The notes: generated by a model not told the origin, from the sequence alone. A stretch of 63,986 bases of DNA, filler included, from Lenisia limosa (GCA_001655205.1; 10 parts of 10 records of this genome joined end to end with filler, not necessarily neighbours in it), one strand, 5' to 3'; positions 19,201 to 63,870 are shown, numbered from the whole stretch's first letter. Made by a program: numbers and translations.

Positions 19201-21071
19201 TCGCTAGAATATCGATAGTTTTCGAGGATTTATCGAGAAATTCTGTCTTTTTCCAAACCGAAGTGAAGCCCTAGATATGGAGGATGGCCTTTGAGGGATG
19301 CTTTGACACTTTAGTTCCTCGTTTCCAGCCATACAGCGCTGAAGTTGTCCGCATTGAGCTTGTGGAATACCCCTGGGGCAAGGAGGCTCGAGAAGACATC
19401 ACTAACACCAAGGTGAGATAGTCAACCCTCCTCTACGAGTTATGGGATACGGTACTGCAGAAGCTGGGATTATGGGATACGGTGCTGCAGAAGTGACTGG
19501 CCTGGGCTTTGTTTGCTTTGTGGTTATCAACCCTCGTGTGTTGTCATCCAACAAAGTTGATTTTGATCTCTTTTCCCCCCCTNNNNNNNNNNNNNNNNNN
19601 NNNNNNNNNNNNNNNNNNNNNNNNNNNNNNNNNNNNNNNNNNNNNNNNNNNNNNNNNNNNNNNNNNNNNNNNNNNNNNNNNNNNNNNNNNNNNNNNNNNN
19701 NNNNNNNNNNNNNNNNNNNNNNNNNNNNNNNNNNNNNNNNNNNNNNNNNNNNNNNNNNNTGAAGCTCTCAGCTCTCACCTCTGGTTTGTCTTGATATTTG
19801 GTCTTGTTTTTGTAGTACTACGTATATAAATTAATACGGCTTCCGCCAGATACATCTTTATTTTTATTTTCCATTGCTACAGCTATATATAAATGAATAC
19901 TATTATTTGCTTTACTAACTACTTCAGCTGGCATGCGGAAGACCCAGGGAACACTCTATTGTAGGCGGTGAGGGAATCTGATTCGGTTGTGGATGTTGGC
20001 TTTTTTANNNNNNNNNNNNNNNNNNNNNNNNNNNNNNNNNNNNNNNNNNNNNNNNNNNNNNNNNNNNNNNNNNNNNNNNNNNNNNNNNNNNNNNNNNNNN
20101 NNNNNNNNNNNNNNNNNNNNNNNNNNNNNNNNNNNNNNNNNNNNNNNNNNNNNNNNNNNNNNNNNNNNNNNNNNNNNNNNNNNNNNNNNNNTTTCAGAAG
20201 AAATCTGACCCGCTAGAAGACGAAGACACGCTTCAAATGGACGATAAGAGAATGGTGCAGGGCTGGGGTGCCTGGGACGATAAGAGAATGGTGCAGGGCT
20301 GGGGTGTCTGTGAAGTACACTAACTATCCGTATTATATGTTACTACATGTCATCCTTTTAGGCTGAAGCAAGAGCAAAGGAAGGAAAGGATAAGAAAAAA
20401 AAGAGCGGAGGCTTTATGAGCACGTATGTTGAGGGTTGTTATTGCAATATTTGACAGTATATTACTGAACGTGTCTTCCCTAAACTTCTCTTAAAAACAG
20501 AGTTTCTCAAAACCTTAAACTAGTTCCAATAGATGCAGTCGTAATATGGCTTGTCTTATTTAACTCTTTGTAGCTTCCGATGGAACAAGAAGAGGGCGGA
20601 TGAGGCCATGGAAGAGGAGGAGACAAAGGTCGAGGAAGAGAAGAAGGCGGAGGAGGAAGAGAAGAAGAAGGAGGCAGAGGCAGCTAAGGTGGGCTGGTTT
20701 TCAAGTGTCCTTTGAGGGGTTGAATGCCTTATTTTTATAGGAAGAGATCAAGGTGCTGCAGCCTCCTGGGCGGGTCATCCACATCGTCAAAGGTACTTCA
20801 CCAGCATCACAAACTGAACAGCTTACATGTCACGACTAATACCTTAACAGCTTGTATGTTACTGATACCTTAGGACCCACGGGCGACCATTTCTTCATTG
20901 AGAAGCCCAATGCTGCGTTCGAAACCCTTAGTCTTTCTTCATCGTGGGGTAACTCCTGGGGGTGAAGTTATATTACAGCTGGTTTTGCTCATTACCCTTA
21001 GGATGATATCGGATCACTCAATGAACAGCTACATTCCTGCTATTGAAAATGCACACTACCAATTGGTTTGA
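16245..21071 (+). CDS. Class-3 lipase (DAG-lipase-like alpha/beta hydrolase)
   Basis: Exons: EWSVGDVTVGLNYL, RPAYYIAVDR, VVLGIRGTATLSDIMTDL, AHRGMAKAA, nucleophile motif VGHSL|GAG, CVALAPPAC, LVPRFQPYS, LQPPGRVIHI, MISDHSMNSY...LV* (TGA 21069-21071). Confidence 0.9.
16735..16885 (+). repeat. Intronic repeat family C, long copy
   Basis: CTGGGGAGGCACGCAGAAAGCTGTG...AAGGCAAATGATTGGGTGAATT...TTTGGTCAGATAC, in a lipase intron. Confidence 0.85.
17574..17681. mobile_element. hAT-type MITE, subfamily A2
   Basis: GGCTTCCACGGTCCC...GGACCGTAGGGAGTCCC. Confidence 0.75.
19174..19273. mobile_element. hAT-type MITE family A
   Basis: Full length; TSD GATATGGG/GATATGGA (7/8). Confidence 0.92.
19442..19580 (+). 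repeat. Intronic repeat family B (reference copy)
   Basis: ATGGGATACGGTGCTGCAGAAGTGACTGGCCTGGGCTTTGTTTG...TATCAACCCTCGTGTGTTGTCATCCAACAAAGTTGATTTT...CCCCCC, starting about 27 nt after a GT donor of the lipase gene. Confidence 0.85.
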
Positions 21072-21427
21072 TCGTTTTATCTCATTTTGATATTGATGTA
21101 TTTATTGAGAATTGTGTTGTGTTTAGGCCGATAACTGCAATACCTTAAAAATCCATAAAACCAAATCTAAAAATACAGTGAAACAGAAATTTGAGTGAAA
21201 TCAGAAATTAGAAACAGAAACATGGGGGGACTATGGTCCAAAGTTCTTCGAAACAGAGCCTTGCATTGAATCAAGAGGGTCGGTGTCCTCCAGCCAGGCA
21301 ACGGGGATGAGGGGGGGAACCCGCGGTCCTACCCAGGTACATCGATCCTAAGTGTCAGTGATATAATAAAACAGAAGCGACATTGCCCCGAATAAAACAG
21401 CCCCTCACATGGCCAACACAGGTCCAG

Positions 21428-24400
21428 TTAGAGCGCGTGGTTATGATGTCCAACGTTCGGGCTATGGACGGAAGCGGCATAAGGGGTGGCGCTGATTCCG
21501 ACGTCACCGTATTGGACCTGGGCTATTAGACCAGGGGGGGGGGGGGCTATGATGAATTTATTGCTGTTGTTGTTGGAATTGGATAGCAAAGGAGCAGACT
21601 TCCTAATATCAGTGGGATCCCAGCGATCTTTCACTCAAATAAAAAAAAGAGCTTACCNNNNNNNNNNNNNNNNNNNNNNNNNNNNNNNNNNNNNNNNNNN
21701 NNNNNNNNNNNNNNNNNNNNNNNNNNNNNNNNNNNNNNNNNNNNNNNNNNNNNNNNNNNNNNNNNNNNNNNNNNNNNNNNNNNNNNNNNNNNNNNNNNNN
21801 NNNNNNNNNNNNNNNNNNNNCAATGTTATAAGAGATACTAATGATAGTAGACAATTGGGGGTATAAGCCAGGCTCGGGCTATGATATGGCAGACAAGTCA
21901 TATTATGAACACTTCAGGCCACAGCTTGTTACCTACTTTTGCAGTTGGTGTTGAAGGTTCGGAAGGCTCAATGATCTCGGGGGTGTGGAGAGAGGCCAGA
22001 CTAAAGGATGCCCCTTCGAGGTCCGGTCGCTGTGCGGGTGAGATATCGCGAAAATATACTGCTGAAACATAACAATGACCAAAACAAGAATGATGGAAAT
22101 TGGACAAATCAAACAAAAAAGCCCAAAATCAACTCTGTTGGCTGATAACACACTGGGGTTGATAACANNNNNNNNNNNNNNNNNNNNNNNNNNNNNNNNN
22201 NNNNNNNNNNNNNNNNNNNNNNNNNNNNNNNNNNNNNNNNNNNNNNNNNNNNNNNNNNNNNNNNNNNNNNNNNNNNNNNNNNNNNNNNNNNNNNNNNNNN
22301 NNNNNNNNNNNNNNNNNNNNNNNNNNNNNNNNNNNNNNNNNNNNNNNNNNNNNNNNNNNNNNNNNNNNNCAGCGTTCTCTGTTCACTGTCAGAAACATAG
22401 AAAGTGCCTTGGGCTGAACAGACTGTGTCGAAATTGATAACAGATGGACATATGATATGTGTGTCCCAGAAAGAAGTAAGGGGGAGGGGGGAGTAAAACG
22501 ACAAGGAAATTTCGGGGGTGAATATGATCGCATAGCTTCAAATTGACAAATTAAAGTATCACAAATGAGCACACACTCTGAATAGCCCTCTCCTGCCCCC
22601 ACACACCGCAACAGGTTCCATCCTGGGCGGCATTGGAGACATGGGTGCCGTATCTTGCACAGGGCCAAGAGTGAACTATAAAGGTCGGATAAATGAAAAG
22701 AAGAGCTGTGGCACAGATAGTTTCATTGTATGTGCGTTCATTACAATAGTCCCATTAGTTCCTGTTGCTTCGATATTTCTCCGTCAGTTATGTATCTTCA
22801 AGATACTCCTTGAGATAGCCCTGTCATTTGCATGTCAAATATCCACGTAATATATGGAGCAAATGATAATATGAAGAAGATGTAATTGTGTCAGGGGCTC
22901 AAGATAGTATGACAGGGCAAGAACCTACGTTGAACTTCGGCGATGGCATTTGTGGTGTAGGAACGGGGAGGGAGAGGGGCTGGAGCAATGAATTCAAATA
23001 TTGTTTCACATGTACAGTATATCTTGAGATTTCAATATTGTTAAACGTGTATATCTTGAGATTCTTCCTTACACTCTACCCCCCACAGTTGGCGGGTCAT
23101 TTTCGCGGCAGAACGATGGGATGAAAGCTTTGACCACTTCGATGCCGACAAGAATACCGCCAGGCCGACAGTCTTGCTCCATCGCTGTCACCCGGGCCAG
23201 GGCCGGGCCCCACTACACCGTCAGAAGGGGGGGGGGGGAAATTGAACATTGGAAAATGTATGAAACAAAAAAAACNNNNNNNNNNNNNNNNNNNNNNNNN
23301 NNNNNNNNNNNNNNNNNNNNNNNNNNNNNNNNNNNNNNNNNNNNNNNNNNNNNNNNNNNNNNNNCTCGGGTTGAGGCTGGATATAACACCCGCAACAGCA
23401 GCGTCAATGGCGACTCCCACTCGGATGCGTATAGGCGGCAGGCACCGGTCTACGAGGAGCTGCGGGGGGTATAAGTAGGGATTCATTTCGGTTCGAAAAA
23501 TATCGGTAAAATATCGACAGTTTTCGAGGATTAATCGAAAAATTAAGTCATTTTTTTGAACCGAAGTGAAACCCTAGGTATAAGGAGCTGCGGGGGGGGG
23601 GGGGGGGNNNNNNNNNNNNNNNNNNNNNNNNNNNNNNNNNNNNNNNNNNNNNNNNNNNNNNNNNNNNNNNNNNNNNNNNNNNNNNNNNNNNNNNNNNNNN
23701 NNNNNNNNNNNNNNNNNNNNNNNNNNNNNNNNNNNNNNGGGAAGGGACACAGTGAGAGCGGCGGCACAGAGCCCATGGTTTTGGAAGTGCTCGGGCTCAG
23801 ATCCTGGGGGTAAAACTAGCATTTGTACAGTGACCGGGATAAGTCTTGACCGATTTTCCTTTGGAAATCACATAGCAAAACGGTCAAGACTTATCCCGGT
23901 CACAGTGCATGCCAACTCCATTTGCTAATCACCGAGCCTCTGGGACAGTGTAATGGCTGAAGCTGGTGTCCACATTCGGGAAACCTATTTATTACCCCCA
24001 TAAAATGGTCACTGTAATGCCCCTTCATCTGACATCATTTGTAATGTCTCCAAGTTAACCCATTTGCTACTAATGGGGACGCCACCAACCCGATTTAACT
24101 GTGGACACTTTTGACATGGCCGAGGCTGCCGCGAGACCAAACACTCCAACCCACGCATCACCTAGGGGTGGAGTTATCCAATTAAGTTCCACTCTCCCCC
24201 TCCTGGGCGCATACCAACAGTGTAGACTCTCCTGCCGCCTAGGGCTTCAGCTGAGAGGTCCACTAACTCAACCAAGTTGGCCAAGATTGCAAACAAATCC
24301 TGGGGGGGAATCTGGACCGTCAAGGGATAAAAAGGAAAGGTGTCAGGCAGTTTATTGGCTGATCATTTCAACGGGCGCCCCCCCAGACCAAAGTAAATAA

Positions 24401-30624: not shown

Positions 30625-30856
30625 CTGGGGGGGGGGGGNNNNNNNNNNNNNNNNNNNNNNNNNNNNNNNNNNNNNNNNNNNNTTAATTAATTAANNNNNN
30701 NNNNNNNNNNNNNNNNNNNNNNNNNNNNNNNNNNNNNNTTCAGTGTTTATGATTCCTTTACGCCAATATTTTTCATAGAAATTTCTTTTGTTTTGAGTTG
30801 ATTTGTTTTTTGTTTTTGTTTCATAAATTTTCCAATTTTACCCCCCCCCCCCCAGG

Positions 30857-31722
30857 TTGACACTTTGGCCTCAACTATTCCGGTTCCGCAGACGATGATA
30901 TCAAAGTCACTTTCCAACCAAACAGAGNNNNNNNNNNNNNNNNNNNNNNNNNNNNNNNNNNNNNNNNNNNNNNNNNNNNNNNNNNNNNNNNNNNNNNNNN
31001 NNNNNNNNNNNNNNNNNNNNNNNNNNNNNNNNNNGGAGTGTTTCACGAAAAATTGAAAGCAAAGTCAGGAGTTTCTCATCTTTATTTTTGATGAGTCTGG
31101 TGAATTTTTAATATTGATTGGAACTTTGACTGAAATTACCAATAACAAGGTATTCATCTTAACTCACAACTTCCCAGGCCCATTTTGACCATTTTAGACA
31201 GAAGAATTGGGAGGTGACGCATGAGTATTGTATTTGGAGCGGACCAATGCCCCAGGTTTGTATTAATATTGTTATTTTGTTTTTATTAGTTTGTAATAAT
31301 AATAATCCTCTTTAATAAGCGTGATGGTATTGACAGCAATATCCTCAAAAAATTAATTGCCGGAGTTTTAGTTTTTCTAATCTTTATAGGGGGCGCGACC
31401 AACCTCAGCGTCACCCGAACCAAAAAGTGGGTTTGTTGAAATTTCCTTCGAATTCCAGACTGGCCTGGGCTTTGTTTGTTTNNNNNNNNNNNNNNNNNNN
31501 NNNNNNNNNNNNNNNNNNNCACAGAGGAATAGTTCCGTCCTTGATCCTGAACACCAGCAGGGACCTCACCCAAAAGCTCGCGAAAAAGTGGGTTGAGTTG
31601 TTTTGTGTGATTTTGAGGACAAGTGGGCGATGTTATTATTTGATATAATAATACTCTTGAATTGGACTTTGTTTTGAGTTTATTTTGTCCATGACAGAAT
31701 GAATCCCTTTGAGCAATAAAAA
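30857..31722 (+). CDS. Multi-exon hypothetical protein fragment
   Basis: Several short GT-AG-bounded exons (QKNWEVTHEYCIWSGPMPQ, RDGIDSNILKKLIAG, HRGIVPSLILNTSRDLTQKLAK); no family recognised. Confidence 0.4.
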
Positions 31723-32473
31723 AGATATTGATAAAGAATAACCAAAATTGAAATGGTTTAAAGAACCAGTGTTCTTTGGAGTGTTTCTGGATTTGAAAAA
31801 AGTTTTACTCTTCTGTCCCTCCCAAAGCCCTGTGTCGTCTCACTCTTTAGGGGGAAAACGCATTTTTGACACGGTTTCTTAGTCTGTATATGGTAGTAGA
31901 GTTTCTTTTTCTTTCTTGTCTTTCTTTTAATTTATCACATGGGATTTTTCATTGTTGGAGTGATACTTTAAGGCAACTTAGTACAGAGGGTATTTTAAAA
32001 TACTTAGTTGGGCTCCGTGTAATTAATAATAGCTAAATGTGATTGGGATATGTTATTCCCTTTTCAGACACAAAATTTCTAATTTTGTCAATATTCAAAA
32101 ATTTAATTACACGTAGTACAGAGAAACTTAGCCCCCCTTGCGCCCAAACCAGAATTATTAAAAAGCNNNNNNNNNNTTTACACGTAGTACAGAGAAACTT
32201 AGCCCCCCTTGCGCCCAAACCAGAATTATTAAAAAGCTGACAAAGCAGCGCGACCGGAGCCTTCCATGCCCTCCCGAACACGGTCAGCCCCAGCCGCAAT
32301 AGCCGGGCCAGGATCTATTGATCGAAAAAAGGGGTGCAACCCCCCAGAACTCCAATAATAACAAAAGAATACTAGGGGGCCCCGATACGCTTGCCCTTGG
32401 GAAGATCCCACAACCCAGGGGGGCGCACCGGGTGCTGTGCGGCTGGGAGGCACCGCACAGTGCGGACGAGGAT

Positions 32474-34925
32474 CTACTCCTGGAGGGGTCAAAAGTGAAC
32501 AAACAGCATCAAGCTTATAAGATATATAGGATATAGTATTACACTTCCCCCCCCCCCATGTATATGATATAATATCAGAGAAAAGAACCAAAACAATATA
32601 CATAATACCGCCAACCTCGGCGGCGGCCTTGGCGAGGGCAGACTGAATGATCTGCTGAGCGCGGGCGCGACGAGTGACGCGAGTGGTGCGGAGCTTCTTT
32701 TGGACCTTCTTGTACTCCTGAAGGGTAAAATATTGTTTTTGAATAAATAGACAAAAGAGAAACAAAACCCTGAGATAACATATTGTAACAAATTGCCCCT
32801 TTTCGAGAGTCCCCACCTTCTTCTCGGTGAGCTTAGCCTCGGGGTTGGCGCGGATGGCAGCGTGGGTCTTCTTGTAGATCTCCTCGAGGTCGTCAGCCTT
32901 AACACCGGCCTTGACGAAGCGAGAGAACTGCTTTGCGTAGCGGTCCTTGTCTTCCTCCTCAAGTTGGCGCATGTAGTCAGCAACGTGGCCGCCGAAGATG
33001 TACCTGCCGAGGGTCTCGGAGTCCATATTCTGGAGGGTGAAACGTTGTATTCAAAGAAAAGGGGCTCAAAACAAACAAAGAAAGGTGCTCACCTTGGACT
33101 CAGCGTCGTAGCCTGGGAAGCGCTTCTCGTTGTGGGGGATGAGGATACCAGCATCACAGGCACCCTGGAGTGGTGGGGGATAAGATTGGATCATTTATGA
33201 AACAAAAAAAGCCCAAATCAACTCTGTTGACTGATAACACACGAGGGTTGATANNNNNNNNNNTTTGCACCACCAACCTTCATGGCAGCGAAGACACGAG
33301 CACCGGTGGAGGCGCGAGCAAGGCCCAGATCGAGGTTGGCAAGGAAGGGGCGGGGGCCGTCTCCAGCCTCAACAGTGTAGTCCTCTCCAACGTTCTGATG
33401 ATGGTGAAAAATGTACATGAATTAAAAGGGGTGAGAAATGTGAAAAACACGCATGAAATAAAAAGGATTGAAATTGATGGGATGAGAAATGTGTAAAACA
33501 TGCACTGTCTACAGGGTAAACTATCCCGGATAGTTGCCATTTATTCCTTGAATGTGGCCTTTTATAACGGTTTTTGCTTGTTTTTGACCGTTTTTGGACC
33601 GTATATAGAGAGCTTAGGGACTTAATTTGGTTTTTACCCGATAATATGTTAAATTGGGGTTTCATTATTTGATTAAAATAGAGATTACTTTCAAAAACAG
33701 AAGGGAAATAGGGAATTCTGGGTGGTTTATGGTGATTTTGTATGGAAAACTCAAGCTATCCGGGAGTTTTGATGTGTCCGGGAATTTTGAATGATGTCCG
33801 GAGCTTTGACTATACATANNNNNNNNNNTGAAATAAAGGGGAGAAAGGTAGGGCTCCGTGCAATTAATTGCAAGGTGCCCTAAAAAAAGGATAAAATGCA
33901 TGATAGGGGTGAAAAATGAGCATACAGTCAAAGGAAACGATGAATTTCGTTTAGTGGAGTGTGTTGCTCCTGATAAGAATCCTATATCATATTGGTTTCC
34001 CGACGGTCCCAAAAAAGACTGAATTTTAGATAAATCCTAGATAAATATCGATATTTTACCGGTTTTCGGACAGTAGGGAAGCCCTAATCATGTCCTACCC
34101 CCCCCGCAACCTCGGTGTTGCCTTCGTAGACCTCGTCCATCTTGAGGGTCTTGAGAAGACGGCGTCCGCAGAGGAGCCCGGTGGCGTAGCAGGCGGCCCA
34201 GTTGGTGAGGCCGAAGCTGAGCCCGTAGCGGGGGAGTTCTGGAAATTAGGGATGGGGACGTTATGAAATAAAAAAAAAAAGCACAATGCGCAAAACAATG
34301 TGCATGTGTCATACAATGTCAAAACAATGTCCATACAATGCAAGCAATGGGTAAAACAACGCCCCATACCGTGGGCGTAGGCGGCACACATGACAACGTC
34401 ACCGACAACCTTGGCGTACACAATCTGTCAGAGTTAAGCGAGAGAAAAAAAGAAGAGGGAGGGAGAGTGTCTGCATGTGCAAAAAAATGTGAGAGCCAGC
34501 TGAGTATGCCATGATCATTTAGAAGGGAGAGAAGCGCAAATGGGTGCCTTTGGCGACGAAGTCATTCGCGGGTTGGAGAAAATAGTTAAGTCACTGCCCT
34601 TCTCTACCCTACAAACTTGGCAGATCACGTCCTTGTTGGTAATACGAACAACAAAGCGGTACTTAGGTGAAGAGTACTTGTTCTTGGCCTGAGCGGTCAG
34701 ACGCTTGCGGGCATAGTAGTCAGTCTTGCCCTCTAAAATTGTTAGTGCGGGCAGCCATCATCAAAAACATTGACTGCTGTAAAACTAACCGCGACGACGA
34801 CGCTGCTTGACCTGGAAGCGCTTGAAGTAAGCCTTGTTCTTAACAATTTTGATATTCTGAAGAATTAGGCAAAAAAAAAAGTAAAAACTGAAAGTCCATA
34901 AATTTCTTCACACTCCGCATACCAT
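32474..34925 (-). CDS. RPL5: 60S ribosomal protein L5 (uL18)
   Basis: M|[22 protein letters not shown]|[12 protein letters not shown]..., VVCAAYAH|[32 protein letters not shown]|[44 protein letters not shown]. Stop TAG at 32474-32476. Confidence 0.97.
33175..33253 (-). repeat. Intronic repeat family B copy forming the 3' end of an RPL5 intron
   Basis: In transcript sense, TATCAACCCTCGTGTGTTATCAGTCAACAGAGTTGATTTGGGCTTTTTTTGTTTCATAAAT...TATCCCCCACCACTCCAG| joins directly to the GGT GCC TGT codons. Confidence 0.85.
33992..34086. mobile_element. hAT-type MITE, subfamily A2, in an RPL5 intron
   Basis: GGTTTCCCGACGGTCCC...GGACAGTAGGGAAGCCCTA. Confidence 0.8.
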
Positions 34926-35132
34926 AGTAAATTAGACCCGGCAGAGTCGAAAAAGGATTTTTTTCAAAAAAATTTAACTTAAATAATAAGTTATACACCC
35001 TACAGGTTTCATAATATTAAGCCTTTCGTTTCTAGCAGTTATCTGGCTAATGTATTTAGAAGGGTTTGTAGTTATAAAATGCGAATACCTTATTTGATAA
35101 AATAACCTTTCCAATTTTGTGAATCAGATACA

Positions 35133-36551
35133 ATGCCCATTTTCACCTTTGCTGATATCAACAACCTCAATGGCAATCTAGGAGGAGCAGGAAATGGGAC
35201 ACAGCTTTCGGGAAATTCTCAGTCTTATTTGGATTCTTCTAAAAGCCATGGTTACGGCTCAGATCCTCTTCCTGACGTCTTCAAACTCTTCAAAATATAC
35301 AACCAGAAGGTAGGCATCTTCGTTCACTCTCATTTTTCGAATCTTCTGACCTCCCTACAGTACTTCCGAGGCTTTCTTGGCGATGTGAAGCTTGAATGGA
35401 GTTCAAAAATGACGCAATGCGCAGGGCTTTGCTATTATCATCGCAACCGTAAGCCTTTAATGTTTGCTATATTAAGATAGGATAAGGGTTTATTTATTTT
35501 CGCTGCTTGGCACGTTTGTGATCTACAAATTATTTTTTTTAAATGAGGGTTTATAATGTTGGCATGATTGATATTTCTTTGAGAAATCTGAATAATGTTG
35601 ACAGATACAGATGAGTCTTATTTTCACATTTATGTTGACCAGATACTTATGTTAACAAATATGTTACTGCCAGTGGTGAGGTCGATTATAAAGAATTAAA
35701 ATTTTTCTGCGTTTTTATTTGCAAAAAAATGTTGTCAGATTACTCATCTTGTAGCACAGATATATATAATCCATATGATATTATGTCTATTTAGCATGGG
35801 TATACAGTCACACTGATATTGATACATATATATATGTATGTACTACCTGTATTATTTTAATACTATTAACAGATCAGTCTTTGCAGCCTTGTGCTCACTC
35901 TCATTCAGGCCAGACAGAGAAATGTGTTGTTCGACTATCGGAAGCGCTTTTGAAGTTCCGACCCGCTTCCGACACCATCAACACCCTCGCTGTTGGGGGG
36001 AGGGGTAAATTACACCTACCTCCACTGTGATACGGAAGCGACCGGCCCGGGCTTTGTTTGTTTTGTTGTTTTCAACCCTCGTGTTTTGTCGGCCGACAGA
36101 GTGATTTGGTTTTTTTTTGTTTTTGTTTCATCNNNNNNNNNNNNNNNNNNNNNNNNNNNNNNNNNNNNNNNNNNNNNNNNNNNNNNNNNNNNNNNNNNNN
36201 NNNNNNNNNNNNNNNNNNNNNNNNNNGAGATGATTCACGCCTACCTCTTCCTTTCTGGCACAAACACCGATGACGACGACCATGGTATGTTGGGAGGCTA
36301 TTTCGATGCTTATTGTTGGGAGGCTATTTCGATGTTTCGCTTCCAAAAGATATTAAAAAAATATCGATATTCATCGAGGATTTATAGAGGATTTGGTCTT
36401 TTTGTAAAGTGAAGTTTATCTTGCCTGTTTTGTTTCACTATTTTTCCATGTTTAACCCCCCACCCCAGGTCCGATGTTCTGCTTCCATATGGCCAAAATC
36501 AATCGCGAAGAGGGCCTCAATATCACAGTCTACCACACTTTCCATAACGAG
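35133..36551 (+). CDS. SPRTN: SprT-like metalloprotease Spartan, 3' truncated at a linker
   Basis: LFKIYNQKYFRGFLGDVKLEWSSKMTQCAGLCYY, CVVRLSEALLKFRPASDTINTL, (H)EMIHAYLF...DHG|PMFCFHMAKIN...NITVYHTFHNE. The first His of HExxH falls in an N gap. Confidence 0.92.
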
Positions 36552-36567
36552 GTGAGGGGGGTGATGA

Positions 36568-37128: not shown

Positions 37129-38830
37129 TCCTGCGGCAACTTGTCGAGAATGAGGAAGTTGTCCTTATTGACACCGATGAGATCGGAGGGAGCAAGGTCC
37201 TTGGTGGGGACCAGGCCGGGGATGGGCAAAAAGACCGTCTGAAACATGAGCTCATGTACACAATATCATTTAGTATACATAAATATACTATGTATCTATG
37301 TGGCTACATAGAAATGCAAAATAAAAACAAGGCTGTATCTGACCGAAGCCGTCCTTGCATAGTAAGATCTTCAGTTTCTAACTTTAAATATTGTATGGTA
37401 TGCGTAATATCTGTGATTGTTCAAAAATCTGTCTGGATAGTGAGCTTTTGTGCAGGTTAAAGTTCCACACAATACCTGTCTGCTAGTCTTACCACCACCC
37501 ACTCACTCCTATGTCCATAATTAGGCCTGACCCACTCCCCTGTCTTTACACAGTCCAACCCCCCTCACCTGTCTGTTAGTCGTCTTCACGACAGCGGCTT
37601 TGTCTTTGGTCTGAGACTCCATATCTATTCCGCCCTCGTCAAGCTCGTCCGCCTCCTCATTGTCCAAATCAAGAAGCTGGGGAGAGGGTAAAAGAAGCTG
37701 GGGAAAAGAAAAAAGTTCAAAATTAACTCTGTTGGCTGATAACACTCAAGGTGTTGAAATAAAAAAACAATGCCCAGGCCAGTCGCTCTGCAGCACCGCA
37801 TCCCATCAGCGGGGACGGGGGAGTAAGATAGGAAAATTTTATGAAACAACAAAAGAAGACAGCTTTAAAAATGAACGTTTTTATTGGGAAGGGAATTATT
37901 CAAGTTTGTGAAGGATATTATATTTATCAAATGTTGATAAATATTAGCTGATTTTGTACAAAACCTCCAAAAAACTTGAGAGATATCGAAAAATACGATA
38001 TGTAGAAAGTAGGGCTCCACTTCGGTTCGAAACAAAGACTGAATTTCCTTTTTTAAACCGAAGTGAAGCCCAAGTAGAAAGGGACAAACTGAAGGGAATT
38101 ATCAGGGAACATCTCTCTCTGCCGTCCTTCATGCCATGGTTGATTATATAATATTAAAAGGGAAATAATGTCTGGCCGACGCCGTCCATACGATAAAATC
38201 ATGACACAAACACCAATTTGCCTTAAAACTCGAACTAGGGTGATGCGTGCAAGATAAGAGTGAAAATCTCAAAACATAGCTTTCACCATTCATCTTACGT
38301 CTACACAAACAAACAAACATCAACGACAACCGTCTTTCCCACATTCAAGTCAAATAAGGAAACCATCCACAAAAGGTTTGGGTTGGATTGTGGAAAACAC
38401 ACCAGCGGGTCTTTTACAAGGCGATTAACTATTTAACTAAATGATTACAGAGCTCCTGCTAACCTCCACAACGTTGGAAACAAGGTAAGGAAGCGACTTG
38501 CCAAGAGCAACCTTGGATGTGTTGTCGTCCAAATGCGCCTTCATTGTCTTTTGTATGTGGATCAGCCTGCTTGTTTTAGAGTGTTTTACGGGTCAGAAGG
38601 CAAGGGAACGAGGGAGAAAACCGATCAGGAAACATTCAACAAATGTTTCGAGATATTCTAAATCTAATCAAAGCCTAAACTAACCTGTTAACCTCGCTTT
38701 TGAGGATAGCAGTTTCGTTTGTCATCATCTGCGCTCTGTTCATAATCTCAGAGGCCGACAACGCTGTGATTTCTTCAGGCAGTCCTTCATCCTTAATATC
38801 CTCCCAAACATCTCCACCCTCAGCTTCCAT
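37129..38830 (-). CDS. PSMC3: 26S proteasome AAA-ATPase subunit RPT5/6A, N-terminal part only; the AAA domain is lost at the linker
   Basis: [58 protein letters not shown]|[25 protein letters not shown]|[10 protein letters not shown]...[19 protein letters not shown]. Confidence 0.92.
38010..38073. mobile_element. hAT-type MITE family A, internally deleted
   Basis: Both TIRs present; perfect TSD GTAGAAAG. Confidence 0.88.
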
Positions 38831-42237: not shown

Positions 42238-45200
42238 CAGGGACAAAGAAAGAAGGTTCGTCGCTCTCGTCTTCCCAGTACACGATGTTGTCCGCTAGCT
42301 GGTCAATGACATTCCCAATGGGGAAGGCAGCGTGCCAGGATTCGAACAGCGGGTAGACCTGAAAGGGGGCGGAGTGAGAGACATGAAACTTAATTAATAT
42401 CTAGAAGTGTAGAGGGGCTGAATTAAAATATGGACAATTTTAAGAAATAAGGGGGTGAGCGACTTGAGTTTACATTTTTTGTAAAGTATCAATTGAAACT
42501 AGGATCATAGAGATCCGGCAGCTGACTGTACACAAAGAAAAACACCCACAGAAAACGACAGAAAAGAGTTACAATAATCATGTGGAAGGGTAAGGGGGCT
42601 GAATTAAAATCTGGACTTTTAAAAAAATAAAAAGGGGGGNNNNNNNNNNNNNNNNNNNNNNNNNNNNNNNNNNNNNNNNNNNNNNNNNNNNNNNNNNNNN
42701 NNNNNNNNNNNNNNNNNNNNNNNNNNNNNNNNNNNNNNNNNGAGAAAGTCTTGACCGATTTTCCTTGAGAGCAAGTCGGCAAAGACATCCCGGTCACTGT
42801 ATATAAAACAAGTATTAAACACATGTAATTTTTTAATGCAACAATATTTGTTTAAAAGATAGGAGAGGCGAGCTGGAAGGGGGGTTGGTGAGAAATTAGA
42901 GGGTTTGGGGTGTTCATTGAAAATCAGTAATAGATTGACTTCAACTACTGTTTTTTTGTAATATGAGAGATAAGAATACTACAAGTTGTTATGAAATAGA
43001 AGGGAAAGGGTGAAGAAACATACCACAAATTTCAGGAATCCAATCTGCGACTTGGCGATTTGCGAATCCTCTCGGTCCATAAAGGGCGAAATTGGGAAAG
43101 ACTTCTCTCGCTCCTTATCTCCCTTGAGTGGTCAAGAATAAGCTAGCAAGAAAAGTAACCCATTCATTACTTTAATTACAAATCTAAAGCCCCATTTTAG
43201 AAGAATATTGGTATTTATTATGATAGTTTAAGTAGAGAATATAAGTGGGACATATTCAAACACAAACGCAATAATAGACCCTTCTATTTCAAATTACATG
43301 TATTATGTCAATTAATGACATAGTGCACCCACTTGACTGTAGAACTCCATCATGAGGCTCTGGACCCATATTTGGTGCTGGTACAATTCCTTGCAGTTGT
43401 GCCCAATATCTGCCATTTTGATAATCACCTGGCGAGGGGGGGATAAACTTGACAGATTTGAAAATAAAAACAAAAGGCTCATAATTAACTTTGTTTCTTG
43501 CAACAAAGTAGGAGGCAAACAAAACTCAAACTTTGATGTGTGTGTTAGTAAGGAGGGTTGAAAATAACATAAACAAAAAAAAACGAAGCCGAAGTCAGTC
43601 ACTTTTGCAGCACCGCATCCCATCACTCCATCGTTGTAGGGGGGGGGGGGNNNNNNNNNNNNNNNNNNNNNNNNNNNNNNNNNNNNNNNNNNNNNNNNNN
43701 NNNNNNNNNNNNNNNNNNNNNNNNNNNNNNNNNNNNNNNNNNNNNNNNNNNNNNNNNNNNNNNNNNNCAGCAATCACAAAACTTTTATATCACTTTGACA
43801 CGCGCATACTGTCATATTCCACACGTATCCACCCGCATGATAATTGACTGACAATAACATTGAAGTAAACTCGCGATAAACTACCATGTTATCTTTATTC
43901 ATTATTTGGCCTCCAAAGTCAGTCATATGATCACTTGTAGAGACGGGTCAAATTGGGTCTGTGATCCGAAAAGGGCGATAACTATCGATAGTTTTCGAGA
44001 ATTTATCGAGAAATTATGTCTTGATGCTCTAGGGTCAATAACCTAGCATACCTGCAGTGCCAAAAAGCGATCACCATCATCGTTTAGCTGGATGGCTGAA
44101 ATCGTTAGATTTTGTCTAGTCACGGAAAATATTATTTAACGAGTTTTAAGGTAAATGATTGGGTGAATAACTATTATACAATGATCCAAAATCTAATAAG
44201 CGTGATGATGTGGACCGCTTCGTTAATATACAACCTTTTTTTATTTCTCATCTCATAATATAATGTACTATAATATGCTTAAAAGCCACATAAATCCCTT
44301 TTAAAGCACCTACAAATCCCCTTAAAAGCCACTTAAATCCCCTTAAAAGCCTACCATTATCAGCGTGTGAGCGAGCGTTCCATTTTGATGAAATCTCAAA
44401 GTGTTGGGCCATGTCTGTCGATAGCACTGCAAAGAAAGTGTGATGTGATACTCTGATAAGTCTGATAAATAATGACAAGTCAATGGCTGATTGAGTAAAA
44501 ATAAAAAAAAAAGGGGGGGGGGTAAAANNNNNNNNNNNNNNNNNNNNNNNNNNNNNNNNNNNNNNNNNNNNNNNNNNNNNNNNNNNNNNNNNNNNNNNNN
44601 NNNNNNNNNNNNNNNNNNNNNNNNNNNNNNNNNNNNNNNNNNNNNNNNNNNNNNNNNNNNNNNNNNNNNNNNNNNNNNNNNNNNNNNNAAAAATAAACAA
44701 ACAATAACAAACACGAGGAACCAACGGGACTTGTCATTGAAAAGAGCATGATCAGTCCAATACTGGCCACGATAAGTTCTGACACGGATTTTGAACTCTT
44801 TCATAATCAATCGTGTCAGTACTTATCGCGGGTAGTGTATTTACGCTCTTTTGGCTTGGTAGGGTACGTCAAGGCCAAATATGAATATTTATCATCTGCC
44901 TATCAAAGAAGCACGGCTGCCCCCATTTCACAAAAAGTCCCCCCACCCATTTCAATAACAAGCTTCCTAACGTAGACGTTTTGTTCGTCATTAAGGTTGG
45001 CCAAAATGTTACAGTTTGGGCGTTGTTCCATCAAAGTGAAGGCTCTAAAAGCTTAAAATAACGCAGTAAAGCTTGCAATAATGCAATGTAAAGGTGAAAA
45101 AGAAAGCAAACAGTCCAAAAAAGAGTAATTGTTAACAACAAAATCTAGATTACCCCCCACCCCCTTCCCTCATAACGCCATCCCCTCTTTTTACTGAACA

Positions 45201-48200
45201 CCCTGTCCTACCTAGATAAATGGATATTTCCCCAACTAAAAGTACATATAGAATGTCCACTATGACCGGGGTAAGTCTTGACCGATTTATTTCCCAAGGA
45301 AAATCGGTCAAGACTTATTCCGGTCACTGTATGTATGTACCACTCTACATACCTGGATACATGGACATTTTCCAAGACCGATCGGTCGTTGTACATAACG
45401 GCTTCGTTTGCCTTACTGGGGTGTGAGGAGGTTCAGAAGGGAGGTAAAACACTTGTTATGATCGACAACAGGGAATCAAAACACTGAGCTAACACAAGGG
45501 AGGGGGGATAAAATTGGGAAATTTATGAAGCTAAAGACCAGAATCAACTCTGATGGCTGATAACCATCGAGAGTTTATGACAATAACAAAACAAAAAACA
45601 AAGCCCAGGCCAGTCGCTTCTGTAACACCGCACCCCATCGGAGGGGGGAGGGGGGTGAAACGAAAAGAAATTTCGATGAGCGTAAAATTTTTGATAGCGA
45701 ATTTGCCATTCCCCAAAACACTCACCATCGAATCAAAAAGTTGTTGTTCACACCAGGGTGGTAGTAATCGTGTATTGAGGCTGCAAGGAGGGCTGAGAGC
45801 CTAGAGGAAATGGGGAGTGAAACTGGTTTTTTTTTGGGGGAGGGGCAAAAAAATATAAATAAATCCAGGGAAATATCATAAGAATACATAGGGTACCAGA
45901 ATAAAATTACCATATGAAACAAAAATAAAAACATCAACACCAATGGTACTCGTCCACGGACTAATGTCAGTGGGATCCCAGCGATCTTTCACTCAAACAA
46001 AAAATAACATAAACACCAGAATTAACTTACTTAAACATGACACTAGATGTACATATCCCCCGCACATATCCAGGGCACTCCAGCCGTAACCGGTTCGAGT
46101 CATGAGGTACCAAATGGACACCATCTGCAGGGTAAATGGGGGGGGGGGTGAATTGAATTGAAAGAGTTAAGCAGAGAGAGAGATAGAGACTAATANNNNN
46201 NNNNNNNNNNNNNNNNNNNNNNNNNNNNNNNNNNNNNNNNNNNNNNNNNNNNNNNNNNNNNNNNNNNNNNNNNNNNNNNNNNNNNNNNNNNNNNNNNNNN
46301 NNNNNNNNNNNNNNNNNNNNNNNNNNNNNNNNNNNNNNNNNNNNNNNNNNNNNNNNNNNNNNNNNNNNNNNNNNNNNNNNNNNNNNNNNNNNNNATATAT
46401 GCATATATATCATATATATATATCGATATATCATATCATATAAAAAAACAATAGGTAGTATCAGTACGAAGACGTCCACACCATCACGGATAGAGATATT
46501 GAATAAACGCTTGGAATTCATTATAAATTTTCTAATTTTGCTTCAAAAAACAAACTCAACTCACCACGTCAGCCGCATGGACAGCGTTGTGATAGGGGTT
46601 GTTGTTGTAACCTTTCTCGATCTCTCTGAAGAAACGCCGACACACCATTCGATCCTATAGAGGTTAAATAGGACGCTTCGGCCCTGTAGAGTCTTCAATC
46701 TTCTATGGGTTCGACTGATATTATGTAATCCTCTCATTAACACTTAATAAAAGTTGAAAAACGCTCATCAAGGGAGCAGGGATTGTTCTTCCGTCGCACG
46801 AATAGTGTTATAGTGGTTAAATATGGTTGAAAAAGAGAGTGGTTAAGCCAGCCATACTCTAAGACATCTCTCCCGTCACCTACCAAGGTCAGTTCGGTGA
46901 AGAGATTGCAACGTCCAAAGATATACTCGGCTAAAACAGAGAGCGAATGGCCTGCTGAGTGAGAGAGACGGGAGTTATTATAAACGATGGATCCTATGAT
47001 TAGAGCTCCTCCTCCAAAAAACAACCACTGTCAATTTTGAAACCCGTATGGTAGTGTGTTTATGGTATCCCTATGTGTATATTTGTTTCCCTGTATTTTT
47101 AATGTAATATATTATTTCTCTTCCTCAAAAAAACCTCATTTTGACAGTTGTTGACTCCCTCCCCCCACCATTCGACTCCTGGTGTAGCTCGAAGACGTTG
47201 AACGAGAAATCGCCAAAGCCGTTTAATATGGAGGAAGCAGGGGTCATGAGGTCAGCCTGGGGGTTATTCAGTACGGATGATACGGGTTATCCTTGAGGGA
47301 GTAAAATTGAAAAGTTGATGAAACAAAAGGTAGCCCAAAATCATCTCTGTTCGCAAGACACAAACTATGATTGAAAACAACAAAAAAACACATCTTTGCA
47401 AGTAGGAAAATCCATATTATCGGTCTTTTTCGATAATCTTGCTCAAGTGATTCAATGACTAAGAAAAGGTCTAATACTTTTTCACAAATTGTACTGAAAA
47501 AAAAAAACAAGGACAAAAAAAATTGGAAACCATGGGAAAAGACAGGAAGTTACACTCGTCTAACCTGGGAGTCTTGAGGAGTAGTCATTTTCAGGGCTTT
47601 TAGAAGGTGCTCTACAATGGTTAAATAAAGAAATACGGTATAGCTGAAGAAATACGCGGTATAGCTGATTAAACTTTTTAGAGAATTCCCATCACACAGG
47701 ATGATACTACTACCCCTCCCCCCATCCCCAAATAAAATAACCATTTCATGCCCATCCCCCAATATCATCCATCCGGGCACCTTTCCGTCCCCTGCTCGTA
47801 TTCAACTGCGCAGGCGAAGATGACGNNNNNNNNNNNNNNNNNNNNNNNNNNNNNNNNNNNNNNNNNNNNNNNNNNNNNNNNNNNNNNNNNNNNNNNNNNN
47901 NNNNNNNNNNNNNNNNNNNNNNNNNNNNNNNNNNNNNNNNNNNNNNNNNNNNNNNNNNNNNNNNNNNNNNNNNNNNNNNNNNNNNNNNNNNNNNNNTTAT
48001 AATATTGACTAAAAAGTAAGGACAGATCAAAAACAGGTCAATAATTTTAGAGGCAGCACAGCACCTATTAAGACTATCGGCTAGCCAGGTGCGGGTCATA
48101 TCGTCCATTTTGCCACTGGGCTTGTCCAAGTTAACGGAATGGAGGTCACGGGTGTTTGACAGCGTAAATATGGCCTCCGAAAGCAATTCTAATGTATTAA

Positions 48201-53989: not shown

Positions 53990-56900
53990 TATCTATGGCA
54001 ATAGCCTCACCTCATCGTCGAAGAATACCGGAATCAAGGGCTCCAGAGGGGACGGCGACCTATGCGTCATCAGCATGGCGATGGAGGCTGACTGGGGGGA
54101 TGAGGAGTGAAATTGGAAAATTTATGGAACAAAAAAAGCCCAAATCAACTCTGAAGGCTGACAACACACAAGGNNNNNNNNNNNNNNNNNNNNNNNNNNN
54201 NNNNNNNNNNNNNNNNNNNNNNNNNNNNNNNNNNNNNNNNNNNNNNNNNNNNNNNNNNNNNNNNNNNNNNNNNNNNNNNNNNNNNNNNNNNNNNNNNNNN
54301 NNNNNNNNNNNNNNNNNNNNNNNNNNNNNNNNNNNNNNNNNNNNNNNNNNNNNNNNNNNNNNNNNNNNNNNNNNNNNNNNNNNNNNNNNNNNNNNNNNNN
54401 AACAAATAAAAAACAAGGCAATCAATCTTAAAAACACACGCAAGAATGTTGACATAGACCCAAAACGGTAACGGTTTTGCAGTTTCCAACCTGAGCTGAG
54501 AAACACGCTTCATGCACGGGGTAGAGGCCCTCAGCGGACCTGACAGACACGTCGGCCCGGGCCTTGAGANNNNNNNNNNNNNNNNNNNNNNNNNNNNNNN
54601 NNNNNNNNNNNNNNNNNNNNNNNNNNNNNNNNNNNNNNNNNNNNNNNNNNNNNNNNNNNNNNNNNNNNNNNNNNNNNNNNNNNNNNNNNNNNNNNNNNNN
54701 NNNNNNNNNNNNNNNNNNNNNNNNNNNNNNNNNNNNNNTGATAGGTTACACACTACGTCAGCAAAAAAACAATGGTTAAACCGGAGGCACCATTACAGAA
54801 TGTGCTATTCAACAAATGGGTATCAACCAACCCGTGCCGGAGCAGAGATGTAGGGCACATAGTCCGTCATTTGACACGGCGTTAATGTCCGCCCCAGCCT
54901 CGAGGAAAAGAGCAACACATCCCATCGGGTCAACCACTTCCTCAGCTGCATCGTGAAATAAATACAACTCTCCTAGTTTGAACACATTGGAGGAGGAAAG
55001 GTAAGGGCCATTTATACAACAGACATCATGACGAGGCTTACCAAGGGCTAAATGATGCAGCGGGGTCAGGCCAGCCTCGTCGTATACTGACACGTTTGCC
55101 TGGGGATGTCAATAACGAAGGAATATTTGACTGGGGAATATTTGATGCTGTTTGTCGCTAAAAAGGAAGATTGACGTCATGTGCAGCCCACGTTATTGTG
55201 TACCAGAGCGGCAAGTAATGGTGGCGACGGCTTGCCGGCACAACCTCGGTGCAAAGCTGGGCATGATGAGGGGGTTCACTCTGAATGTCCATATGGAATA
55301 ACCATTATTTGGTATAGTATGTCTACATGTGATGATTTATCCGCACCAGTGCATCCTTCTAGATCTTGCGAGTCGACATCAAAGCCGTTCTCAACCAACG
55401 CTAGGACGGTCTGTTCGGTTAAAGGTGAAGCAAAAGAAGGTCTGTTCAGTTAAAGGTGGAGCAAGAAAGGTCTGTTCGGTTAAAGGTGAAGCAAGGAAGG
55501 TCTGTTCGGTTAAAGGTGAAGCAAGGAAGTCTGTTCGGTTAAAGGTGGAGTAAGGAAGGTCTGTTCGGTTAAAGGTGTCGCGCGATATACATATAAAAGT
55601 CCCAACACCTCACCTCGGAAGACCCATGAGACGCTGCAATGATCAAGGCGTTTTGCTCCAGTGTCTCCTCCATCCCCTCTGTATGCATGGCCTGGAGGAT
55701 AAACGATCCCGTAGTCATATAAGTAAGGCTTCACTTCGGTTCGAAAAAAAGACTGAATTTCTCAATAAATCCTCGAAAACTATCGATATTTTACCGGTAT
55801 TTTTCAAACCAAAGTGAAGCGCTACACAAAAGGCCCCTGCGGTCCAAAAGACCAGGTAATATCGGCAGTTCTCTCAGTATGCAAGAGCATCGAAAAGGTC
55901 TATTTAGGACGGTGGGGAAGCGGTATGGTGGAAACCCACGTTTTGGTCGAGAGCTAAAGGCGCGGGGCTGAGGCCGATTCCACAGGCCTTCAGAATGGGC
56001 AACAAATCGAAGCGGTTCTACATCAGTGAACATGGACAAAATGCAATAACACATGTTTCCAGTCAACAAAGCCGATTATGTCCGGCAAGACCGCCTACAT
56101 AGACTGCAATATCGTAGATAAGAGCCGACCACCCGGCCGGCCATTCAACATCAGCATCAATGAGGTGCAGGTCTCCTTCGTCGGGGCTGGGGGGGGGGTC
56201 AGATTTATGAAACAAAAAAACAATACGTGTGTTCGTCTTGAGGTATACAAGTAGGGCTTCCCTACGGTCCCAAAAAGAACGAATTGCTCAATAAATCCTC
56301 GATAAATATCGATATTTTAACGGTCTTTTCGGACCATATATACAAGAGATGAAAGGCCAACATTTGGCCCTCTGGTCCGCAGAACATGACTGAAACATCG
56401 GGGTAACGGGGCTCTCGTCCAAGTTTGTCATCCACAATGCCCGCCTAGAGTGTAAGGTCCAAGACAGGGCAATAATCTGTCTGTGGTTGTGAGCTCTTTT
56501 TTGTTTTGAAAGTATCCAGGAAAAGCTAATAATGGAAGCCCACCATAGCGTTTCTAAGAACAGCGGTGAACAAGGACCTGGTCGTTCCTGGTGTTTTGAT
56601 GATGTCCTTACACAGCTCCAGTCGGTCGAATGTGACCCTATACGGTTGGATGGGAACAATAAGTGCCTATCAGCCCACACCCACGGTGCTCGATATCCTG
56701 ATAGCCTATAAGCCCACACCCACGGTGCTCGATATCCTGATAGCCTAGAAGCCCACACCCATATAAGCCCACACCTACGGTGCTCGATATCCTGATAGCC
56801 TATAAGCCCACACCCACGGTGCTCGATATCCTGATANNNNNNNNNNNNNNNNNNNNNNNNNNNNNNNNNNNNNNNNNNNNNNNNNNNNNNNNNNNNNNNN

Positions 56901-59979: not shown

Positions 59980-61135
59980 ACCAGAATGAAACCTCGGAGT
60001 GTAAGGATTGTTCCATGGGTACAGCTTTTGGCTACTTTTGACCATTTCGGGCTCAGTTAAGAATACGTAATGAATCTATACAGTTAACCAATCATACCGG
60101 GTGTGGGGGGGACGTAGGCGGAAATGGATCTGAGGGGAGGCACTAAAAAGCGTTATAAAGGGGGGGGGGGNNNNNNNNNNNNNNNNNNNNNNNNNNNNNN
60201 NNNNNNNNNNNNNNNNNNNNNNNNNNNNNNNTAAAACGAAGGAAATGTCAATGAAGAATATTGGCGTCAAGGTTACTAATCACGAACAGAATAATCTGAA
60301 TAGGGGGGGTTGGAATATTTTCTCTCAACAAAATGCCTAAAATCAACACGAGGGTTGAGAACAACGAAACAAATAACGCCTAGGCCAGTCGCTTCTACAG
60401 CAACAATGTTCAAAATTAAATGCCTTTTCATCATTCAAAAGTGTCTTAAAGTGGCGATACCCATTTTCATGACACTTTTGCTGCATATCTTATTGAGTAC
60501 TCCTGCGTACACAGTTGGCCTCAAATAGGGGAGTGATAGGTCTGTGATAGTGAAGTGACAATACCCCCCCCCCCCNNNNNNNNNNNNNNNNNNNNNNNNN
60601 NNNNNNNNNNNNNNNNNNNNNNNNNNNNNNNNNNNNNNNNNNNNNNNNNNNNNNNNNNNNNNNNNAATTGAGGCTGAATTCCGCACCTCCAGTGAGTCTG
60701 AAAATGGTCACAGCTTTTGCAATTCAGTGCCAGTTTTGGTTTACCCAGTTGAATAGTATTTGTATTGAGAAGCTGAAACAATAAAACAAAGTCATGGCAA
60801 TGGTAAACAGTACATAGGTGTTTTAATATCACAAATAAATAATAATGGCAAGAAAAGAAAGTTCTCTTTCTCCAAGCTTCCAAAATGAAAGTTCTCTTTC
60901 TCCAAGTTTTCAAAAAGGTATTACCAGGTTCCTAGACATGATACATATCTACCCATAATATGCCAAATTCAACCACTGTATGCTATTATAAGAGACCAAT
61001 ATAATATGTCCCGATATGGCACCGAATGAAAGAAAGAGACCCCGGCCTACCAAAAGCAACAATGTCGTTGTTTCTCAGATCAAACGCGCGGACACCAAAA
61101 GAAAGCCCCAGAAGCAAGAAGATCACATGAATCAT
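59980..61135 (-). CDS. Putative secreted protein with a signal-peptide first exon (61135-61051); downstream exons tentative
   Basis: MIHVIFLLLGLSFGVRAFDLRNNDIVAF G|GTAGG. Confidence 0.5.
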
Positions 61136-62715: not shown

Positions 62716-62782
62716 TTTTGCCAGTACGCTGCATTGTGTTACTTATAGAAGTTTTATCCCAATATTCAGTCCTGATATACAG

Positions 62783-62879: not shown

Positions 62880-63164
62880 ATATNNNNNNNNNNNNNNNNN
62901 NNNNNNNNNNNNNNNNNNNNNNNNNNNTTAATTAATTAANNNNNNNNNNNNNNNNNNNNNNNNNNNNNNNNNNNNNNNNNNNNTCATTGCTATATGTAGT
63001 AATGATATATACATGTATATGATTGAGAACACAAAAGGTCCTGACCCGGATATTTAGTTTTTGTTTATCACAATCGTCTCAGCACTTGTTGGGGTAAATA
63101 TGTGGGGTACACCTGTATGTACAACATTCAGTTTATTCTGGTGTCTAACCTCTGACTCATCTTG

Positions 63165-63870
63165 TCTAAGATCAAAGATCATCATATCATTTCACCACCA
63201 TACCACTTACGTCAGATGTATTCGCCCCTTTTTCTAAATACCCCCCGCCACACAACACACACACACATACGAACACACACACACACACGAACACACACAT
63301 ACATATACATACAATTTAGTCTCATTACCTTCCTAAATATCCCCGAGACACCATTTCTTCACATATATTTACTTGACCCCCTTACGCTGCAGATAAAAAT
63401 GGCACGCTTTACGACTATCATTTCACGCACAACCCTGAAAAGCTTTGGACACACGGAAACTGGGGATGGTAGGCTTAGAAATATCTCTTGCCAAGAGTAT
63501 AAGATACATACACTGACCACTCTAAGTCCTTCACGAATATTCAGCTTTATCTTTAGCCAATCATATCAGGACTAATCGCGGTCACTGTAGCTTCAGCAGA
63601 CTTGGGTCTAGACATTATATGTTGTGTCATCAGCCTAGCATATGATTTGACTTTTGGTTTTTCGCTTTCCAAAGTCTCACCCACCAACCCCCCTCCCCCA
63701 AGGAGCCAACACAAACACAGTTGATTTGGGGTTTTGTTTGTTTCATAAATTTTCTACTTTACCCCCCACCCCCCAGGCTACATGAGCATGGCCATAGTCT
63801 CGATGGTGGCAGCAGTGACCCCGAGTGCCCCCATGGCCGCATGCATATGAGCTGGTCAGACTCCGTTGAG
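63165..63870 (+). CDS. Internal exons of an unidentified protein
   Basis: AG/GT-bounded open segments (DKNGTLYDYHFTHNPEKLWTHGNWGW, LHEHGHSLDGGSSDPECPHGRMHMSWSDSVE). Confidence 0.4.

Follow-up and report, generated by a model that had tools for sequence, protein, structure and literature searches.

Introns of the breviate Lenisia limosa (GCA_001655205.1) carry a repeat, here called family B, that lies in the sense orientation of its host genes and often ends at the 3' splice site. The window in which it was studied is a stretch of 63,986 nucleotides (nt), in which ten scaffolds are joined by nine linkers (each 44 N, a 12-nt stop linker, and 44 N) and adjacency across a linker is not genuine. 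Its 58,516 non-N bases (38% GC) have an intron-rich, eukaryotic gene content. We observed the repeat itself, its orientation, the anatomy of its ends, its stacking, and its abundance; B is quite possibly a non-autonomous, C-tailed retroposon that resupplies the acceptors of existing introns.

A profile made from 11 window copies gave 12 matches at E<1e-7 and three weaker ones (E 0.002-0.003) in the window, and the best match in a reversed-window control had an E of 0.74. The 15 matches represent 14 loci, the copy at 43495 being split in two. Among the approximately 15 copies proposed in the initial annotation, 14 of 15 loci were recovered by the profile, and the remaining one at 56185 is only a fragment of ~20 nt (E 2.1). 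One end of seven window copies is masked by N gaps. Pairwise identity between copies has a median of 74% (range 57-84%, 41 pairs). Based on gap-free copies in the extra contigs described below, the complete unit is ~135 nt long and non-coding. It starts near AGTGATGGG, has a GC-rich head and a U-rich middle, and continues with TTTCATAA...TTTTAC and a C-run, the terminus being a branch-point-like motif plus the C-run. The copies begin at profile positions 2-3 (seven copies), 7, 8, 11, 23, 40, 48, 76, and 82 of 134, and end at positions 126-134 in 11 of the 13 visible-start copies with the 3' end outside gaps. A fixed 3' end with variable 5' truncation is a trait of short interspersed nuclear elements (SINEs) and non-long-terminal-repeat retroposons. 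This RNA-like anatomy, with one fixed end and ragged 5' ends, agrees with the earlier suggestion that B could be RNA-mediated.

The other structural features examined were negative or weak. As annotated initially, terminal inverted repeats (TIRs) are absent from all four full copies, two of which have merely an internal 9-nt arm pair; this rules out B as a miniature inverted-repeat transposable element (MITE). No shared length or motif indicative of a fixed-length target duplication was found in the 13 copies with both flanks, and short direct repeats flanking these copies are weakly enriched (permutation p=0.04; best 13/14 nt, L084:110). No consensus pairs were found among nine copies, four copies showed no stable fold compared with shuffled sequences (z -0.7 to +0.9), and Rfam gave no match at E<=5 over B (including transfer RNA (tRNA), 5S, and 7SL); an identity as a small nucleolar RNA-like or structured RNA was ruled out by these results. 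Calling of tRNAs on B gave none, and no RNA polymerase III head of the SINE type was found.

Contigs of this eukaryote were also found mis-binned in a bacterial species-representative genome, G001 (C39, C43, C46, C69, and others; L083-L116). B is present in four of the 41 contigs screened from this bin. These four extra contigs are taken to belong to L. limosa or a close species because a MITE-like family and two further families, D and E, are common to both; they contribute loci, not independent biology. The 3' motif of B matched only two contigs of the bacterial bin, both mis-binned eukaryotic ones, and had no matches among viral contigs, and the 5' motif had no exact matches among metagenome contigs. 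Introns are evenly covered in a public contig run, which was therefore treated as DNA. In this run, on the stretch 30740-36560, the bins bearing B have summed depths of 91,462 and 98,664 compared with ~39 for unique DNA, sums that are not copy numbers and give the order of magnitude only. The depth ratio of B to unique DNA (2,300-5,600) and the local density (239 per Mb) together suggest that thousands of B copies are likely present in the genome, for which the public assembly is given as 49 Mb (PMC9860276).

The initial annotation described all copies as host-sense, and this was upheld: 15 of 15 window matches are sense and none is antisense, over ten host segments (sign test on segments, p=0.002). 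The host strand is backed by protein homology at eight of the 14 loci, namely, RPL5, PSMC3, SPRTN (E 0.011), PDE (three loci), ankyrin, and lipase (weak, E 0.038). At 22095, 23225, 30793, 31458, 60310, and 63715, the strand was assigned via splice signals, open frames, and T/A skew, the last of which gives little strand support at 60310 and 63715. No antisense intronic copy was found in the four extra contigs. Two B copies there have no clear host intron, namely, L088:1449 and L091:3168, the latter being degenerate and located within a C-rich tract that separates two convergent genes. The initial annotation had named an abundance of antisense or intergenic copies as evidence against its proposal; this was not seen, and these two possibly intergenic copies are what was found.

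Other repeat families of the window provide controls for this bias. A palindromic MITE-like family (~100 nt, intronic, 26 loci in 461-62879) has 10 sense, 15 antisense, and one unassigned copies. Family D is ~135 nt long and non-palindromic with an AT-rich tail (6473, 16760, 37067, 41644, 44135, 49656, and 13 fragments). Family E has a B-like terminus (TTTTAC plus C-run) located at acceptors, and all six window copies are sense. The sense bias is not peculiar to B, because the non-palindromic families E and D are biased too. One explanation is that B is an ordinary short retroposon that inserted randomly in both directions, and that selection purged antisense (A-rich) and exonic copies and kept those offering a usable branch point and pyrimidine tract. 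The sense proportions of the unrelated families B (15/15), E (6/6), and D (18/19) versus the palindromic MITE (10/25), the age of the B copies at their median identity of 74%, which allows time for filtering, and the single antisense D copy and two possibly intergenic B copies are all consistent with it. However, selection of this kind does not predict the acceptor-flush copies, the C-rich left flanks, or the repeated stacking at one spot described below, and it requires near-total removal of antisense copies even mid-way in long introns. We regard it as improbable as the full explanation.

The position of B within introns was assessed for 17 copies that have a visible 3' end and an assignable exon; not counted are three window copies whose 3' end is masked, the fragment at 56185, the two copies without a clear host intron, and three degenerate fragments. 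Exon starts are homology-supported at RPL5, PSMC3, and PDE and were placed by eye at the others. The 3' end of B lies within 12-17 nt of the acceptor CAG in 10 of these 17 copies, 30-44 nt from it in four, and 64-180 nt in three. The pyrimidine/poly-C end had been reported to form the acceptor at 30853, 33175, 37685, and 63776; we found the same at these sites and additionally at 43429 and 54092. The short intron that hosts the copy at 23227..23275 may be mostly B, its sequence being interrupted by N letters. At the other end, B starts 28-655 nt past the donor in six of the seven introns with a placeable donor, and RPL5 alone differs (3 nt).

The sequence upstream of B is often an older intron end, which may be an E end (30744, 45646), a B end (37812; L084:5313), or a bare C-run. 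A gap-free example is the head-to-tail stack of B on B at L084:5313-5489. In the contig run, the 3' end of B is joined directly to a B 5' start in many contigs, and the majority sequence 5' of B is a C-run (113 records). E and B stack together in either order. Left flanks are C-rich in six of 13 B copies compared with a background of 4.9% (p=2e-5). The splicing of a B intron is RNA-supported at the RPL5 junction only; read and RNA contig checks were restricted to the stretch 30740-36560, and 10 of the 14 B loci lie outside it.

From these observations, we infer an RNA intermediate, priming by complementarity, an enzyme, and a source RNA. At an existing acceptor, the C-rich end of B RNA would pair with the template strand, which is G-rich there, and a borrowed enzyme would reverse-copy the RNA into that site. 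The insertion would shift the old intron end upstream and supply a working new one. Copies would be tolerated, abut acceptors, and be stacked because each B insertion brings a working intron end. The simplest RNA source would be the host's own spliced-out intron ending in B, C-run, and AG, which would require no promoter. An RNA with this end would pair solely at acceptors and solely in sense, and antisense copies would be both seldom made and selected against. New introns, perhaps including that of RPL5, would be an occasional by-product. Target-primed reverse transcription in which the RNA end pairs with its target is consistent with the fixed 3' end, the ragged 5' ends, the stacking, and the C-rich targets. 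Mammalian tailless retropseudogenes have been described as primed in this way, through complementarity to the target and with no poly-A tail (PMC5322556). In a stricter version, which we consider rather unlikely, B would be a promoter-less retroposon released by splicing that homes from acceptor to acceptor and serially rebuilds intron ends, with occasional landing at an exonic AG/G founding a new intron. An RNA with the required end would arise solely from sense copies located at the extreme end of an intron.

Several observations weigh against B as an acceptor-resupplying retroposon. A C-rich left flank is missing in seven of 13 copies, and the RPL5 site offers no C-run for priming. L088:1449 and L091:3168 may be outside introns. 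The flanking-duplication signal comes mainly from one copy, and C-runs blur the remainder. In the search, which covered G001, no reverse transcriptase or partner long interspersed nuclear element (LINE) was identified for B; of the two reverse transcriptase matches there (C55 and C21), the one inspected, on C55, reads as a bacterial group II intron. Family D is host-sense in 18 of 19 copies (44135 being antisense) with no C-run link, an equal bias that the retroposon reading does not explain and that indicates a more general cause. Antisense B is absent despite near-equal numbers of G-runs, whose opposite strand would offer C-runs and collect antisense copies (p=0.0007 for 14/14), the sense strand having 31 G-run versus 46 C-run tracts (4.3% versus 4.9% of 20-mers). 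Plain C-run targeting is ruled out by this comparison, and therefore pairing through AG, or selection, must be added.

Donors of many introns in the window are followed by G-runs and acceptors are preceded by C-runs (e.g., 7402, 8929, 18482, 34098, and 35995), and assembly gaps concentrate at these G- and C-runs. Such homopolymer runs may be fragile, and breaks there could have been repaired by template switching between C-runs, which would copy the intervening sequence with no RNA step. This fits the C-runs that B frequently has on both sides, the lack of any promoter-like, repeat-end, or tail feature in B, the similar end of E, and the clustering of assembly gaps at homopolymer runs. However, template switching predicts ~40% antisense copies at donor G-runs, where none was seen, and it does not explain the ragged 5' ends without a C-run (7/13 flanks) or family D. 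We consider it very unlikely.

The main rival to the retroposon reading is spliceosomal reverse splicing. According to this explanation, B would belong to the true introners, of the Micromonas introner element (IE) or fungal introner-like element type, and the spliceosome would insert it into R-loop DNA or transcripts. A master intron would start with GTGATGGG and end with a C-run and AG, new introns would arise in exons, and nested or incomplete copies would lie in old introns. The sense-only orientation would be a direct consequence of reverse splicing, and several full B copies open with a donor-like GTGATG or GTTATG. Micromonas IEs are likewise sense-only, with 32 remnants in conserved introns and with nested or merged copies (PMC3879977), and an attack of the lariat 3' OH on R-loop DNA has been proposed (PMC4540971). 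However, buried copies are the majority of B, given the donor distances above, and what most often precedes B is a C-run and not an exon. Homology at both splice boundaries, the introner criterion, was found in the RPL5 intron alone, which has an internal gap. The initial annotation offered two options, an intron-generating introner or an element tolerated only in the orientation that provides a polypyrimidine tract. Its sense-only orientation and acceptor supply stand, but an introner as the main identity is weakened, with B buried in six of seven introns and stacked behind older ends, and with the PSMC3 intron at a presumably ancestral position. We consider an introner origin unlikely on balance, and the RPL5 locus is where it fits best.

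One RPL5 exon of the window matches a 292-residue protein at 100%, and the 90% cluster of this protein includes an L. limosa record at 99% identity. B-like letters begin 3 nt past the donor of its B intron (intron 5) and B continues to the acceptor, with AG/G on both sides. The intron is spliced, as RNA contigs span the junction and the flanking exons are contiguous in the transcript protein P0002. This RPL5 intron alone looks wholly B, and the case resembles a whole-intron insertion. There are two RPL5 copies (window 32480-34860 (-) and P0122/P0123), whose proteins are nearly identical and whose exon DNA is ~12% apart. The second copy has a similar depth in the contig run and is dominant among RNA contigs. 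Intron 3 is absent from it (joint 34236-34387 in both runs), as are introns 7 and 8 (P0123 is unbroken on a 34-kb contig), and in the contig run its sequence extends into intron 4 by 3 nt and into intron 2 by 7 nt. Its exon-5 piece, in contrast, has one and the same last base in RNA and in the contig run, and therefore this copy likely has no B intron either; a GC donor would give the same picture. No genomic fragment of the second copy over the B junction was found.

The two RPL5 copies differ by three or four introns, namely, 3, 7, 8, and likely 5. An AG/G context is found at three of the four introns missing from the second copy versus none of the three apparently kept, a pattern that fits gain with AGG duplication but also loss by microhomology. 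For an introner origin, the nearly all-B intron at AG/G that is likely missing from the second copy is supportive, and so is the absence there of introns 3, 7, and 8, with other repeats in 7 and 8. However, the copy with the higher representation may instead have lost introns, and the evidence that the B intron is absent is indirect. All 80 outgroup RPL5 loci were returned intron-free and hence are uninformative on intron positions. Human RPL5 is not known to have an intron at the residue-162 place. For PSMC3, the position between residues 95 and 96 is presumably a human exon boundary; in that case, the intron is ancient and B took over its end.

Table 1. Copies of repeat family B and of the related family E in the window, with positions counted from its first letter.
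Feature	Position	Strand	Context
B with doubled 5' start, internal, entering an N gap	19442..19582	+	28 nt past donor; lipase-like intron 19414 to ~19927
B 3' half, 5' end in gap	22093..22167	-	~34 nt ahead of assigned acceptor
B 3' end and C12 run	23227..23275	-	14 nt ahead of TAG acceptor
E 3' end, B immediately downstream (head-to-tail)	30744..30796	+	
B 3' part	30793..30855	+	C-run and AG form the assigned acceptor
B 5' fragment, rest in gap	31458..31481	+	~30 nt past putative donor; E 0.0018
RPL5 intron with B up to acceptor, 10-N gap within	33165..33277	-	After residue 162, phase 0, AAG/GT...CAG/G
B copy in SPRTN intron	36024..36132	+	~31 nt past donor; 3' end in gap reaching next exon
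Full-length B at PSMC3 acceptor	37677..37808	-	Intron ~790 nt, between human-equivalent residues 95 and 96, phase 0
Older B-like 3' end and C-run	37812..37855	-	Immediately upstream of PSMC3 copy
Full-length B with internal insertion, C12 run before	43429..43625	-	Ends at PDE acceptor
Full-length B within PDE intron	45498..45640	-	Same 10-nt C-rich word on both sides; 93 nt ahead of acceptor
E 3' end	45646..45702	-	Immediately upstream of 45498 B copy
5'-truncated B	47292..47390	-	~44 nt ahead of assigned PDE-gene acceptor
B 3' half, 5' end in gap	54092..54173	-	Ends at assigned ankyrin-gene acceptor
B-like ~20-nt fragment at acceptor	56187..56221	-	E 2.1, not significant; 18/18 match to RPL5 copy
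5'-truncated B, then E head-to-tail (60232-60300)	60303..60402	-	
5'-truncated B, acceptor-like C-run before	63700..63776	+	Ends at assigned acceptor
Family E	Window 11446, 30744, 45646, 52530, 59791, 60232; L105:314-417; L083:3017		

Some features around these loci are recorded here in their own right. The PSMC3 acceptor and the first exon letters are doubled at 37677-37710 (-), 21 nt apart and in frame, and may provide an alternative upstream acceptor. A repeat near intron 3' ends is found at 8581-8634 and 32725-32778 (91% over 54 nt), the latter copy being in RPL5 intron 7 and missing from the second RPL5 copy. Another repeat of ~330 nt in RPL5 intron 4 (33470-33818 (-)) is also found at L094:4045-4359 and has a high summed depth in the contig run. 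A 2.3-kb element with TIRs at L084:1415-3758 interrupts a B copy, and its broken frames appear transposase-like. A second palindromic family of ~80 nt is located at 23826-23907, 40197-40280, 42746-42796, and 45258-45332, and its hairpin has a chance Rfam microRNA score under the cut-off.

For the host genes, database look-up of those at 22095 and 23225 gave no match; the label "cyclase" is a tentative one based on motifs. The PDE gene had no match among transcript proteins. At 2765-2855 (+), a tRNA-like gene whose anticodon loop carries an insertion scores above the Rfam cut-off and was not called by ARAGORN. The intron-bearing gene at L091:2130-2780 (+) has an in-frame stop in the first exon; we take it to be an SLX1-like GIY-YIG nuclease from a motif, and Pfam gave no match.

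No account of B was found in the literature searched, which omits most subscription papers and some supplements. In the part of the 2022 supplement (PMC9860276) that was searched, Lenisia appears once, in the genome list only, and it was not found in the searched part of a 2025 introner-screen supplement. Introner screens demand similarity at both splice boundaries and discard partial-intron elements (PMC9860276, PMC12130899). Given such whole-intron screens, acceptor-replacing elements could be common yet unseen. The spread of introns through an RNA intermediate is a long-standing question, so far addressed by indirect evidence (PMC9860276, PMC4540971). With B, a breviate provides what are likely thousands of copies that are locked to one strand and share a fixed terminus at the intron end, and the setting of B adds an internal DNA-transposon control, two more sense-biased families, and an RPL5 pair that differs in introns. 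The RNA route of intron spread thereby becomes testable with one long-read genome. If B were indeed released by splicing and homed from acceptor to acceptor, it would constitute a genome-wide natural record of spliced-out introns reverse-transcribed into DNA.

Among known systems, Micromonas IEs (IE-A to IE-D; PMC3879977, PMC4540971) and B are both repeated, non-coding, and sense-only in transcribed regions, and both have some copies buried in conserved introns or mutually nested. The Micromonas elements each make up a whole intron at a new position and are often near-identical, whereas B is mostly a 3'-end piece in longer introns, 5'-ragged, C-tailed, and ~74% identical. Among the introners of Aureococcus, Symbiodinium, and Polarella that have TIRs and target-site duplications (10.1101/2020.10.14.339549, PMC9860276), some classes recruit splice sites from an AGG-type duplication. 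The RPL5 B intron, with AG/G on both sides, resembles these classes. Unlike these introners, B has no TIR and no fixed-length duplication, and it has its own branch-point-like motif and C-run.

B is also like the SINEs and tailless retropseudogenes that LINEs mobilise (PMC5322556) in its fixed 3' end and variable 5' truncation, and it may further resemble them in short variable duplications and in complementarity priming without poly-A. Unlike these, it has a C-rich and not an A-rich end, no tRNA, 5S, or 7SL match, and no identified partner LINE, and it supplies an acceptor. Antisense Alu elements donate polypyrimidine tracts as 3' splice signals and create cryptic exons, and they are found in both orientations. 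In both Alu and B, the end of a retroposon (a putative one in the case of B) serves as a 3' splice signal, but B extends constitutive acceptors or takes their place, and it is found in sense only. If its stricter splicing-released version is true, B would bridge SINEs and introners, and present introner screens would filter it out. B is a real family and represents a variant of intron-associated mobile elements, partly introner-like and partly SINE-like, for which the mechanism given here is a proposal.

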